Made by a program: the position numbers and the translations under genes. From NCBI RefSeq assembly GCF_035555455.1, contig NZ_DATMGM010000037.1:84996-148995 (forward strand): a DNA stretch of 64,000 nucleotides, given 5' to 3'. The DNA is from Pelagibacterium sp. Lineage in GTDB: Bacteria > Pseudomonadota > Alphaproteobacteria > Rhizobiales > Devosiaceae. Below, piece by piece: positions 60,870 through 64,000 of the stretch (position 1 is the first letter of the stretch; every line of letters begins with the position of its first letter). The notes below the pieces were generated by a model. The model saw only the letters and a list, made by a program, of their open reading frames with translations. It made no database searches and was not told the origin of the DNA.

Positions 60870-61898
60870 ATGCTGTGCACCAACGATCATAAACCGTCGA
60901 GGCGCGATGCTGTCAGCGAGCGCAGCCACCTCGACCCATTCGTCGTAGCCACCGGAGACGCCGCGCCGCGCGATCAGCGCGACCTGATGGAACGACCGTT
61001 CTTCTCGCTGGCCAAATCCCCGCGCACCAGGCCCATTCTCTACAAGGCCGCCGATGTGGAGGTGCAGGTGCTCGCCATGCCCGAGCACGGCATGGCGACC
61101 ATCTGGGATGCCGATGTGCTGATCTGGGCGGCGTCCCAGATCGTCGCGGCCGAGAACGCCGGCTTTCCCACCTCGCGCTTCTTTCGCTTCATGCCCTATC
61201 AGCTCCTGCGCGCGGTCGGCCGGTCCACCGGAAACCGCGACTATCTTCTGCTGAAGGCCGCACTCGCGCGGCTGCAATCGACCGTCATCGCGACCAGCAT
61301 CCGCAATGGCGCGCATTGGCGGCGCCGCCAATTCTCATGGATCAACGAATGGGAAGAGATGACGACGCGCAGGGGCCGCGTCGAGGGCATGGAGTTCGTC
61401 CTGCCCGAATGGCTCTATCAGAGCGTCATCGATCGCTCGCTGGTTCTGGCAATCGACCCGGCATATTTCCGGCTGAAAGGTGGCATCGAGCGCTGGCTCT
61501 ATCGCGTCGCCCGCAAGCATGCCGGACATCAGCCCGAGGGCTGGGTATTCGAGTTTTCTCACCTGCACCATAAATCTGGCAGCCTCGCACGGCCGTCTGA
61601 CTTCGCGCTCGATCTGCGCCGGATTGCAGCCCGCCAATCTCTGCCCGGTTATCGTCTCCAGATCGAGTGGCAGGACGGGCGAGAACTGCTGCGCTTTCTC
61701 CCTGCAAAACTATCCACAGGCACTGTGGATAACCCTATGGAGGCAATCGGGACATCGGGCGCACGCAGCATCGGGACATCAGGCGCAAATCGCCGCCGAC
61801 ACTCTATAGAAGACTCTAACAATAAAACTAACTCTTCTTCTTTGACGCGCGCGCATCCGAGCCATGGTGCTGGTGCCAACCGCCGAGCTGCGCCATGA
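60870..61898 (+). CDS. repA: Replication initiator protein A (Tn4371-type)
   Basis: RDQRDLMERPFFSLAK, GMATIWDADVLIW, L.RLQST...T.I, IERWLYR.ARKHAG.Q. Confidence 0.9.
   Translation: MLCTNDHKPSRRDAVSERSHLDPFVVATGDAAPRDQRDLMERPFFSLAKSPRTRPILYKAADVEVQVLAMPEHGMATIWDADVLIWAASQIVAAENAGFPTSRFFRFMPYQLLRAVGRSTGNRDYLLLKAALARLQSTVIATSIRNGAHWRRRQFSWINEWEEMTTRRGRVEGMEFVLPEWLYQSVIDRSLVLAIDPAYFRLKGGIERWLYRVARKHAGHQPEGWVFEFSHLHHKSGSLARPSDFALDLRRIAARQSLPGYRLQIEWQDGRELLRFLPAKLSTGTVDNPMEAIGTSGARSIGTSGANRRRHSIEDSNNKTNSSSLTRAHPSHGAGANRRAAP
61710..61850. other. Putative replication origin inside the repA 3' end
   Basis: Inverted DnaA boxes CTATCCACA (61710) and TGTGGATAA (61724); 18 bp repeats at 61746 and 61770 (17/18 identical); AT-rich tract at about 61800-61845. 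Confidence 0.55.
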
Positions 61899-63124
61899 TG
61901 CGCGCGCTCGATCTGTTCAGCGCAGCCGCCGGAGGCCGGTCGCTTGGCCTCCATCGCGCCGGCTTCATCACCGTTGCTGCCTGCGAGATCGTCAAATGGC
62001 GGCGCATCCTTTACGCAGAGAACAATCCTCATGTCCGCCTCTACGACGACATCCGTGGACTCACGGCAGCTCGCCTTGTTTCCGACCTTGGAATACTCCC
62101 CGACATCATCGTCGGCAGCCCGCCCTGCCAGGACATCTCCAGCGCCAACACCAAAGGCAAGGGGATCGAGGGCGAACGGTCGGGCCTCTACCTTGAAGCC
62201 GTCCGCCTGGTCGGAGATTGCCGCCCTCGCTGGTTCGCTTTTGAGAACAGCGCTAATCTCAGAACTCGCGGCGCTGACCGAGTGCTCGGCGAGCTGGAAG
62301 CGCTCGGCTACGCCACAGAACCGTGCGTGGTGGGTGCTGCGGACGTCGGCGCCAACCATATACGCAAGCGGTCATGGCTCATCGGCTATGATCCCGAGCA
62401 GCTTGCCAACACCCATGGCCTCGGATGGAATGAAAGACGCCGCAGGCGGCGGAGCGGGATCGACATATCCGCTGCGGGCAATCCTGGCGACTCCGAGGAA
62501 ATCGGATGCGGATCGAGGTGGCAGGGGCGACGTTCTCAGCCAGTTGCAGGGCCATGCCAGCCGCCATGCGGGTATGCTGCCGACGCCGGTGAAGCCGAAT
62601 GGCGGGCGCAGGTTGAGTCCGCGGGAAATCGAGACGGGCAAGCGGGAGAACGGGACGAAGGCGCAGATCGACACGCCGAACCTCTTGCGCCACGCGGCGG
62701 AAATCCTGCCGACACCCACGAAACGCGACAGCCGCATGGACGGCTGGAGCCCGGCCTACGATCGGCGCAATTCGCCGACGATGGATGCGGTGATGGATGG
62801 CGCGATGACCAATCGTGCGCCGGACAGATGGGCGGGAGCGCGGGCGCTGGCGGCGATGCTGCGGAACCATGGGCTAACTGGAACGGCGGCCTTGCCCATC
62901 ACCTACGGCTGGATGATGGGCTTTCCGCCTGGGTGGCTGACACGCGCATTGCGCTCGGCAGTCGCAAAGGGACTGCTGCGGCCAGCCTGATCGTCGAGGC
63001 GTTCGGCGACGCCGTTCTTCCGCAAATCCCAGAAGCCATCGGGCGCGCCATTCTGCGCACTGAAGCTGCACTCGACGCGGTGCTCGCCTGTACATCCTTA
63101 GACATTCCCGGAGAAGAACAATGA
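61895..63124 (+). CDS. C5-cytosine DNA methyltransferase, main (alpha-like) frame
   Basis: DLFSAAAGG (atypical motif I), GSPPCQDIS (IV), FENS (VI), RKRSW (VIII), EAFGDAVLPQ (X); no motif IX in this frame. Confidence 0.85.
   Translation: MMRALDLFSAAAGGRSLGLHRAGFITVAACEIVKWRRILYAENNPHVRLYDDIRGLTAARLVSDLGILPDIIVGSPPCQDISSANTKGKGIEGERSGLYLEAVRLVGDCRPRWFAFENSANLRTRGADRVLGELEALGYATEPCVVGAADVGANHIRKRSWLIGYDPEQLANTHGLGWNERRRRRRSGIDISAAGNPGDSEEIGCGSRWQGRRSQPVAGPCQPPCGYAADAGEAEWRAQVESAGNRDGQAGERDEGADRHAEPLAPRGGNPADTHETRQPHGRLEPGLRSAQFADDGCGDGWRDDQSCAGQMGGSAGAGGDAAEPWANWNGGLAHHLRLDDGLSAWVADTRIALGSRKGTAAASLIVEAFGDAVLPQIPEAIGRAILRTEAALDAVLACTSLDIPGEEQ
62031..62990 (+). CDS. Overprinted (beta-like) methyltransferase subunit in the +1 frame
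   Basis: Open frame 61944-62990 nested in the methylase, with four L[P/A]TP repeats and a terminal motif-IX-like TYGWMMGFPPGWL. Start uncertain (61944 or 62031). Confidence 0.6.
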   Translation: MSASTTTSVDSRQLALFPTLEYSPTSSSAARPARTSPAPTPKARGSRANGRASTLKPSAWSEIAALAGSLLRTALISELAALTECSASWKRSATPQNRAWWVLRTSAPTIYASGHGSSAMIPSSLPTPMASDGMKDAAGGGAGSTYPLRAILATPRKSDADRGGRGDVLSQLQGHASRHAGMLPTPVKPNGGRRLSPREIETGKRENGTKAQIDTPNLLRHAAEILPTPTKRDSRMDGWSPAYDRRNSPTMDAVMDGAMTNRAPDRWAGARALAAMLRNHGLTGTAALPITYGWMMGFPPGWLTRALRSAVAKGLLRPA

Positions 63125-63636
63125 CCCGGCGCACCTTTCCCGGCGCGCGCGGACGCGGTCTTGCGGATGCACCACCCTTCATCACGCTGGTCGAACTGAC
63201 GTTTCAGCGGAAGAAGGTCGAACACTGGATACGCTTCGGGCGCAAGAGCTACGAACAGATCATCGACCGCCGCCGCAGCGTCGTCGGGTTTGCGCCGGGC
63301 AGCGTCTTCGCCTTCGTCCGATGGGCGAATGGCGAGCATGGCACGGTCGTCTCCCGCATCGATATCGTGCGGGCCATCGGGCGCGGTGAGCCATTCCAGA
63401 CATTGCCGTTCGTCCGCCCCGGCGGCGAAATCCTGTTGCGCCTCGATGGCTGGCCGAAGGTGCAGCGCGGTCTTGCCGCCATCGACGCCGTGGAATCGCT
63501 CGGCCTCGATCCGGCCGACGCCGCACCGGAGCATTGGCGGCACGTCCACAACCGTTTGACCGCCAATCTGGAGCCGCACGCCTACACGCCCGAGCGACAT
63601 GCCGCGTGGCTTCATCGCCGAAGAATCGAGCCATGA
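63121..63636 (+). CDS. DUF2840 protein
   Basis: TLVELTF..KKVEHWIRFG, FAFVRWANGEHGT, PFVRPGGEILL, HVHNRL. Confidence 0.9.
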   Translation: MTRRTFPGARGRGLADAPPFITLVELTFQRKKVEHWIRFGRKSYEQIIDRRRSVVGFAPGSVFAFVRWANGEHGTVVSRIDIVRAIGRGEPFQTLPFVRPGGEILLRLDGWPKVQRGLAAIDAVESLGLDPADAAPEHWRHVHNRLTANLEPHAYTPERHAAWLHRRRIEP

Positions 63637-64000
63637 CGCGCCGCCGCACCCTCACGGTGACGGCGCTCGCCGCCATCGGCATCGCCGCCGCCAGCGCCGT
63701 CAATTGGCCCGTGAAACTCATCTGGAACGCGACGGCCAGCGCACCCATCGGCTTCTACACCGTCGAGCCGGCCGAGCGGATCGAGGTGCACGAGCTGGTC
63801 GCCGTCATGCCGCCCGAACCGCTCGCGGCCTTCATGGTTGAGCGCGGTTATATCGCGCGCTGCGTCCCGCTGTTGAAGCGCGTCTTGGGCCTGCCGGGAC
63901 AGCGGGTTTGCCGCTTGCGATCCACGATCACGGTTGATGGGATCGAGATGGGCGAGGCGCTGGACCGTGACAGCCTCGGCCGCGATCTCCCCGCCTGGCA
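63633..64000 (+). CDS. traF: S26-family conjugative pilin-processing peptidase TraF, runs off the right edge
   Basis: Manual translation MTRRRTL...LIWNATASAPIGFY...ERGY....PLLKRVLGLPGQRVCR; ATGA overlap with DUF2840. Confidence 0.88.
   Translation, partial: MTRRRTLTVTALAAIGIAAASAVNWPVKLIWNATASAPIGFYTVEPAERIEVHELVAVMPPEPLAAFMVERGYIARCVPLLKRVLGLPGQRVCRLRSTITVDGIEMGEALDRDSLGRDLPAW

Follow-up and report, generated by a model that had tools for sequence, protein, structure and literature searches.

An open reading frame nested within a DNA cytosine-5 methyltransferase gene of an integrative conjugative element: conserved, under selection, and probably encoding the small-domain subunit of the enzyme

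Introduction

Can two genes nested on the same strand encode the two halves of one DNA methyltransferase? The question is raised by a DNA cytosine-5 (C5) methyltransferase locus of Pelagibacterium sp. (RefSeq assembly GCF_035555455.1, contig NZ_DATMGM010000037.1, positions 84,996–148,995 of the forward strand). The whole stretch of 64,000 nt is here called the window, and all coordinates are positions in it. The window belongs to an integrative conjugative element (ICE). The gene is read in frame 1, and its product is named alpha; a second frame, shifted by +1, is open across most of the gene, and its product is named beta. An initial annotation of the locus described alpha as a methyltransferase lacking motif IX, placed motif IX and a repeat array, possibly modular, in the second frame, and compared the arrangement to M.EcoHK31I. 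The precedent is correctly described: in M.EcoHK31I (E. coli HK31, YGGCCR; Lee, Kam and Shaw 1995) beta is encoded in another frame entirely inside alpha, alpha carries motifs I–VIII, motif X plus the target-recognition domain (TRD), beta carries motif IX, and both chains are required (PMC2836561, PMC3404938).

In the family studied here selection keeps both frames free of stops, amino-acid selection passes from one frame to the other and back again, and the start of beta is conserved. The two nested genes probably encode, jointly, one C5 methyltransferase composed of a large-domain and a small-domain subunit.

Conservation of the two frames

The genes and the signal before the inner one are as follows.

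61895–63124, + strand: alpha gene, frame 1, 409 amino acids (aa), C5-methyltransferase large-domain subunit (open reading frame (ORF), PF00145, phrog_363, Foldseek).
62031–62990, + strand: beta gene, +1 frame, 319 aa and a TGA stop (62988–62990), wholly nested in alpha.
62017–62022, + strand: candidate Shine–Dalgarno-like AGAGAA, weak, ending 8 nt 5' of the beta ATG, proposed from the upstream sequences of 66 loci.

The second open frame extends from 61944 (TTG) to 62990, 348 codons, as initially annotated, and reads SLPTPMASD, ILATPRKSD, MLPTPVKPN, ILPTPTKRD and ITYGWMMGFPPGWL. Its span stands; its proposed start at the TTG does not, since the conserved start is ATG 62031 and the stops of relatives lie only upstream of it. 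Eighty homologous loci were taken from genome contigs. Of these, 66 with an intact frame 1 were analysed (52–100% protein identity; Rhizobiales, Rhodobacterales, Sphingomonadales, Acetobacteraceae) and nine more were read by eye. An ATG is present at the beta start, at about alpha codon 45, in 66/66 loci. From this ATG to the conserved beta stop, which lies 22–45 codons before the alpha end, the +1 frame is stop-free in 65/66 loci, the exception being L048. Stops in the +1 frame are confined to codons 16–47, upstream of the beta ATG; in distant relatives the ATG is shifted downstream by four codons, in some cases to a place right behind a stop. GGAG precedes the ATG by ~10 nt in most of the 66 loci (GGAGAA at the site); the window has AGAG. 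The +2 frame, taken as control, contains 8–22 stops per gene, 14 in the window gene. The nine loci read by eye behave in the same way, decayed copies apart. Rhizobium phages RHph_N2 and RHph_X2_25 (59–60% GC) have the same two-frame layout, annotated as one methyltransferase gene. In all, the layout is found in about 75 loci plus phages. Interruption of the inner frame by stops in close homologues, looked for as evidence against the initial annotation, was not found: the frame is intact in all but one of the 66 loci and in both phages. The locus thus has a conserved second ORF with its own start wholly inside alpha, as in the M.EcoHK31I type.

Three copies look decayed. L031 (Nitratireductor aestuarii) has a beta stop and a frameshift removing motif X from alpha; L080 (Daeguia caeni) has the catalytic Cys replaced (PPRQ for PPCQ); in L048 (Paracoccus versutus) a stop interrupts the beta leader at residue 44. 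L024, in which motif I reads LDLSS, is perhaps decayed as well. A sequencing error, or a pseudogene with two compensating indels, is rejected in view of the conservation of the layout in these many loci and in phages.

Selection in each frame

For 59 non-identical loci, aligned by codon, nucleotide diversity was computed separately at each codon position. At 61895–62390 the frame-1 wobble position is the most variable (0.30–0.37), and frame 1 is the constrained frame. At 62391–62975 the frame-2 wobble position is the most variable (0.25–0.42; 0.18 in one bin), the constraint lies on frame 2, and position 1 of frame 1 is free to vary; in the cassette region (62403–62705) frame-2 wobble diversity is 0.35–0.42. 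From 62976 the frame-1 wobble pattern is back and frame 1 is again constrained. GC content by phase, taken from the window sequence alone, gives the same switch of frame. Frame-2 amino-acid diversity over the ~585 nt is low, 0.09–0.24 in most bins. Purifying selection on the second frame across the repeats and the motif-IX region is visible in codon-position diversity.

Overlap with beta does not reduce synonymous diversity everywhere. In the beta leader frame-1 wobble diversity is 0.30–0.37, equal to that of the non-overlapped alpha codons 1–45. At alpha codons 106–150, which correspond to beta residues 61–105, it falls to 0.15–0.25; the reduction is consistent with selection on these beta residues. 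Dual-frame constraint is less clear at beta residues 270–314. Two stretches, the first ~59 beta residues and the ~190 residues in the middle of alpha, are unconstrained in sequence and uninterrupted in intact loci, the beta leader of L048 excepted.

As a separate observation, the last 45 beta codons (62841–62975) have a frame-2 wobble diversity of 0.18–0.29, against 0.35–0.42 upstream; alpha reads PWANWNGGLAHHLRLDDGLSAWVA here. This could be a second dual-constrained segment or a constraint at the RNA level.

To obtain expected numbers of stops, the codons of the constraining frame were replaced at random by synonymous ones drawn according to local codon usage. For the window, ~2.3 partner-frame stops are expected at 62031–62390 and ~3.7 at 62391–62987; none is observed. 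Over the loci, the beta leader has 1.7–3.5 expected stops (P(none) 0.02–0.11 per locus) and the alpha linker, the unconstrained middle of alpha, 3.6–10.8 (P(none) ≤0.015 per locus); none is observed in either. For the beta leader of phage locus L081, with no flanking ORFs available for codon usage, 6.8 stops are expected and P(none) is 0.001. Codon choice depends on the partner frame. In the alpha linker, at fourfold-degenerate frame-2 codons, wobble T occurs in 0/1451 cases where it would create a frame-1 stop and in 584/7127 (8.2%) where it is harmless. For frame-1 Leu/Val codons before A, wobble G/A occurs in 0/171 cases inside the beta ORF and in 316/1188 (26.6%) elsewhere; upstream of the beta ATG, where stops are tolerated, the count is 10/50. 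A chance ORF in GC-rich DNA is rejected in view of the stops of the +2 frame, the synonymous resampling and this context-specific codon avoidance.

Description of alpha

61895–62404, + strand: residues 1–170, with motifs I, IV, VI and VIII; purifying selection on frame 1. Motif I, DLFSAAAGG, lies within this interval.
62120–62131, + strand: motif IV, PPCQ.
62240–62251, + strand: motif VI, FENS.
62357–62377, + strand: motif VIII, HIRKRSW.
62405–62975, + strand: alpha linker, about residues 171–360, G/A/R/D-rich; always open, amino-acid sequence unconstrained.
62976–63121, + strand: C-terminus, with motif X and a long helix after it.

PF00145 matches alpha with E=4e-30, residues 2–171 corresponding to profile positions 1–167 of 324. 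The NCBIfam dcm model gives a similar partial match; the phrog_363 match spans residues 1–393. Because the PF00145 match is limited to positions 1–167, motifs I–VIII are placed in frame 1 and the part with the TRD and motif IX is missing there, which agrees with the initial description of a main frame having motifs and no motif IX. The motif X region lies outside the Pfam alignment. Canonical PF00145 enzymes carry the TRD and motif IX on the same chain as these motifs; alpha carries neither. The columns of motifs I, IV, VI and VIII, whose family patterns are FxGxG, PCQ, ENV-like and QxRxR-like, are invariant among 35 homologues, and the catalytic residues are kept. The assigned motif X, FGDAV (residues 370–374, 63002–63016; family pattern GNxV), is also invariant in homologues, and SLIVEAFGDAVLPQIPEAIGRAIL of the C-terminus is near-invariant.

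AlphaFold2 (AF2) models of alpha and beta were made with 35 sequences each. In alpha, residues 1–174 and 375–406 are confident. The large domain has a predicted local distance difference test score (pLDDT) mostly of 65–95, with a low-confidence loop at residues 79–89; the helix next to FGDAV, residues 377–400, has pLDDT up to 86. Residues 175–374 have pLDDT 23–42 and are predicted to be disordered. Foldseek with alpha returns M.HaeIII, M.HhaI, DNMT1 and a prophage enzyme (3g7u), with E about 1e-12 to 1e-13 over ~175 columns; the coverage is that of the large domain only.

Description of beta

62031–62207, + strand: leader, residues 1–59, S/T/A/P/R-rich; held open, sequence unconstrained.
62208–62345, + strand: residues 60–105, SEIAALAGSLLRTALISELAALT.CS.SWKRSATP..RAWWVL; dual-coded, overlapping alpha motifs VI–VII.
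62403–62483, + strand: cassette 1, LPTPMASD..., LPTP-type.
62484–62576, + strand: cassette 2, LATPRKSD..., LPTP-type.
62577–62705, + strand: cassette 3, LPTPVKPN..., LPTP-type.
62706–62987, + strand: last cassette, LPTPTKRD..., and helical C-terminal part; invariant, the most conserved part of beta.
62892–62939, + strand: motif-IX-like LPITYGWMMGFPPGWL.

Beta carries four LPTP-type modules and, near the C-terminal end, the motif-IX-like GWMMGFPPGW. Many columns of residues 60–105 are invariant in the alignment of homologues. The pattern LPITYGWMMGFPPGW precedes FGDAV of alpha by a fixed distance; from MGFP to FGDAV it is 101 nt in 20/20 loci. Beta is matched by phrog_1008 ('DNA methyltransferase') with E=1e-13 at residues 26–306. 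No Pfam or NCBIfam match was detected for the window protein, and nothing relevant was found in a Pfam scan of all 35 beta family members. No match to PDB sequences was obtained by phmmer and profile searches at E up to 10. No significant match was obtained by hhalign of the beta profile with six canonical single-chain C5 methyltransferases of related genomes; the sole, non-significant alignment covers 18 columns with a probability of 0.2% and places PNGGRRLSPREIET on the start of motif IX. The motif IX initially assigned to the second frame is a putative one, a sequence pattern with no significant Pfam, PDB or hhalign match.

The AF2 model of beta has, at low confidence, a helix at residues 59–83 and a hairpin at residues 87–105. 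It is too poor for a fold search.

As a minor observation, the cassette in that non-significant alignment is the one at 62577–62630 (beta TPVKPNGGRRLSPREIET), set against HP..R.LTVRE.AR. As a hint, the LPTP cassettes might derive from duplicated motif-IX-proximal sequence.

Relatives and cassette variation

The frame-1 protein has >1,000 database relatives. The best 120 listed, found in Brucella/Ochrobactrum, Shinella, Paracoccus, sphingomonads, Acetobacteraceae and others, are 384–535 aa long, nearly all full-length and mostly annotated 'DNA cytosine methyltransferase'; the length of the middle varies. The frame-2 product as a separate query returns 274 proteins, 'hypothetical protein' where named, with a few frame 1-to-frame 2 chimeras among them. 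A search of 1.84 billion sequences with a profile of 35 frame-2 proteins yields 795 cluster representatives (E≤1e-3), and the start position of beta is shared by many. A Pfam domain is present in 0/9 of the long beta-only profile hits tested; a tenth, P0314, is a frame-switching chimera with PF00145. No natural single-chain or unlinked form of alpha and beta was found among the long profile hits, only frame-switching chimeras: P0146, P0169, P0126, P0314 and P0270 run from alpha to beta, or from alpha to beta and back to alpha, in one frame through indels or deletions, and P0270 (255 aa) is without motifs VI–VIII. The chimeric proteins are probably assembly errors, indel variants or degenerate copies, not true single-chain relatives.

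In the 66 loci beta is 298–409 aa and alpha 387–526 aa long, and both frames are open in the variants. Homologues differ by whole cassettes, e.g., LPTPVSQSQQGG..., LPTPRTSDAAHGPE..., GTPTANAAPRGS... and LPTPTATRYGS.... Cassettes are gained, lost and reordered among beta homologues (order changed in P0200 and P0174). These changes support the modular array suggested at first, and fit a putative modular recognition region in beta.

A tandem KRD(KRD)n expansion is present in the last LPTPTKRD cassette of L066 and L069, TKRDKRDKRDKRDKRDKRMD. It is in frame for both frames.

Interpretation

The proposed enzyme would be formed as follows. Alpha would be translated from 61895, giving the S-adenosylmethionine-binding and catalytic large domain (motifs I–VIII) and the motif X helix; ~200 residues, merely kept open and in sequence an out-of-frame reading of beta, would connect the two. 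Beta would be translated in the +1 frame from the internal ATG 62031 and would consist of an unconstrained leader, the conserved helix-hairpin element, the LPTP-type cassette array as the likely target-recognition part, and the motif-IX-like C-terminus, together the counterpart of a canonical enzyme's small domain. This domain and motif IX are assigned to beta because beta is complementary to alpha and has a GFP-type pattern (Gly-Phe-Pro), which stands at a fixed spacing of 101 nt before FGDAV. Frame 1 would be open across the middle because alpha must join motif X to the large domain, and frame 2 open from 62031 because beta needs its own reading frame. The chains would assemble non-covalently, as in M.EcoHK31I. 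Most probably this is an orphan methyltransferase, which would shield element DNA from restriction in new hosts. From the comparative data we infer translation of beta, assembly with alpha, activity, and a role of the cassettes in specificity.

Several points weigh against this proposal. The evidence for translation of beta and for its association with alpha is indirect. The identity of beta as small domain with motif IX would follow from a short pattern and from complementarity with alpha; no significant match of beta to Pfam, PDB sequences or a canonical C5 methyltransferase profile was obtained, and the model of beta alone reaches pLDDT 43. The Shine–Dalgarno-like sequence of the window itself is weak (AGAGAA). 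An unconstrained linker of 200–300 residues within an enzyme is, to our knowledge, unusual. The loci are related, so that Fisher p-values of the codon-avoidance test overstate independence; the direction of the avoidance and the sharp boundary at the beta ATG are clear despite this kinship.

Both products may be made without beta being a methyltransferase subunit: beta could be, e.g., a DNA-binding or anti-restriction factor, and alpha inactive or otherwise used. Such a role is suggested by the lack of detectable homology of beta to known TRDs or motif IX and by a cassette array that has no characterised counterpart. It is considered unlikely, because alpha and beta are complementary for the canonical motif set, the GFP-type motif lies at the canonical distance before motif X, the catalytic residues of alpha are conserved, and the two frames are co-inherited as a unit in three backbone positions and in phages.

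A single canonical polypeptide (motifs I–VIII, TRD, IX, X) could be produced by two programmed frameshifts, +1 near 62391 and −1 near 62976. Purifying selection follows exactly this path of frames, and the constant 101 nt from the GFP motif to FGDAV are similar to the motif IX–X spacing of single-chain enzymes. Twenty diverse loci have no conserved slippery heptamer, in-frame stop or rare codon at the junctions, and the junction bases vary. Two frameshifts would leave unexplained why frame 1 is stop-free over the 200–300 codons of the middle, why frame 2 is stop-free over the 120 codons before the junction yet has stops upstream of the ATG, and why the beta ATG itself is conserved. We know of no precedent for two efficient frameshifts in one gene. 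With no conserved signals and with open frames outside the required path, the double frameshift is rejected as quite improbable.

That alpha, or its large domain, functions alone and the second frame is a by-product of GC-rich DNA, or that the gene is a decaying pseudogene, is hardly credible: GC-rich DNA does yield many long spurious ORFs (several on the opposite strand here) and a few copies are decayed (L031, L080, L048), but frame 2 has a coding wobble pattern over ~585 nt with low amino-acid diversity, the +2 frame is full of stops, the layout is kept in phages at 59% GC, and alpha alone would be without any constrained TRD or motif IX.

Comparison with known systems

The locus would be a nested heterodimer like M.EcoHK31I but more extreme, in which the nested subunit carries all of the recognition half, a reading well supported by comparative evidence. 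M.EcoHK31I and the present locus are alike in being C5 methyltransferases with a beta ORF wholly within alpha in another frame. They differ in the division of parts. In M.EcoHK31I the TRD is on alpha, and beta is small and carries motif IX only; here the whole variable, putative recognition part is on a beta of 319 aa (up to ~409 aa in relatives), and alpha has an unconstrained linker at the place of the TRD. Unlike in M.EcoHK31I, beta overlaps about 78% of alpha (957 of 1230 nt) and has a conserved N-terminal element. The claim of the same architecture holds for the nested conserved ORF and fails for the TRD-like part, which is in beta and not in alpha; the likeness is one of layout.

M.AquI (CYCGRG) is a two-subunit C5 methyltransferase (PMC3404938). 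It is likewise a split enzyme with the break in the variable region after motif VIII. Its small subunit has motifs IX and X and its genes are not nested, whereas here motif X is on alpha and the genes overlap fully. Fragments of M.SssI complement best when the split lies between motif VIII and the TRD (PMC3404938), and the frame switch here falls exactly at this position. Since the natural split is at the best engineered position of M.SssI, the family could supply ready-made heterodimer scaffolds.

M.HhaI, M.HaeIII and the prophage CP-933R enzyme (PDB 3g7u) share with alpha the large-domain fold and motifs; their small domain (TRD and motif IX) is in the same chain and frame, and here it is not. 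The Bacillus phage C5 methyltransferases SPR, phi3T and rho11s are multispecific single polypeptides with tandem characterised TRDs. Both they and the present family have a variable region of tandem modules differing in number and order between relatives; in the phage enzymes the TRDs are in a single chain, and here the putative recognition cassettes are on a separate nested subunit. A literature search found no paper on the nested gene of this ICE family.

Should beta be a real subunit, what is annotated in hundreds of cases as one 'DNA cytosine methyltransferase' gene is a pair of genes. Those that ICEs carry in Rhizobiales, Paracoccus, sphingomonads and acetic acid bacteria are among them. 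The part that probably sets the methylated sequence would then be missing from protein databases or filed as 'hypothetical protein'. Predictions of methylation motifs, and of how mobile elements evade restriction, would be affected, and so would gene-calling benchmarks, because long overlaps on one strand are discarded by callers and curators alike. The locus would be a clean natural dual-coding system, with one 45-codon segment selected in both frames and two long segments, one per frame, selected only to stay open.

A wider view, put forward tentatively as possible, makes the ICE/phage clade the extreme case of a very large class of obligate alpha/beta C5 methyltransferases that has for the most part gone unrecognised; exchangeable LPTP-type cassettes on the nested subunit would set specificity. 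If this were true, gain, loss or reordering of cassettes would re-target or multiply specificity, and the partner frame would tolerate each change as an open, meaningless linker; at 957–1227 nt, the gene pairs would rank with the longest of cellular mobile elements that overlap fully on one strand; and the linker would be a natural example of a protein segment selected only for absent stop codons.

Genomic context

In the window RepA (PF10134) is followed by the methyltransferase gene, DUF2840 and a TraF-like gene. The alpha start overlaps the repA stop (ATGA) and the alpha stop overlaps the DUF2840 start (ATGA). The gene occupies three slots in the same backbone among relatives: RepA-[methyltransferase]-DUF2840-TraF, as in the window; RepA-...-PAPS-reductase-like-[methyltransferase]-DUF2840; and RepA-DUF2840-[methyltransferase]-TraF. 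The contexts of distant relatives are probably prophages. Given three backbone slots and other contexts, the gene is taken for mobile cargo rather than for a strict parA replacement. Of the initial claims on context, coupling to repA and DUF2840 is borne out by the ATGA overlaps, and the parA position holds in part, the gene taking three different slots among relatives. As to ParA in relatives, a 213-aa ORF after RepA in L005 has no Pfam match, and the idea of a parA replacement is unconfirmed. No restriction endonuclease adjoins the locus, the direct neighbours being RepA, DUF2840 and the TraF-like gene (PAPS-reductase-like in relatives), which agrees with the role of an orphan, restriction-evading methyltransferase that we infer.

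The methyltransferase gene is present in one copy in the window's own genome. Over 2185 nt the interval 61816–64000 of the window, at this end of the ICE, matches a scaffold of Shinella daejeonensis JCM 16236 with 99.86% identity (comparison with L001 and L002), and this strain has a second copy of the locus with 95% identity. Such near-identity may mean that the element moved between hosts recently.

In many related ICEs a gene of 383–424 aa with a 3'-phosphoadenosine 5'-phosphosulfate (PAPS) reductase domain (PF01507, E about 1e-13) is located directly upstream, between repA and the methyltransferase gene (L029:1853–3001, L005:1730–3001). It is missing from the window. This gene may be a co-travelling DNA-modification or anti-restriction partner.

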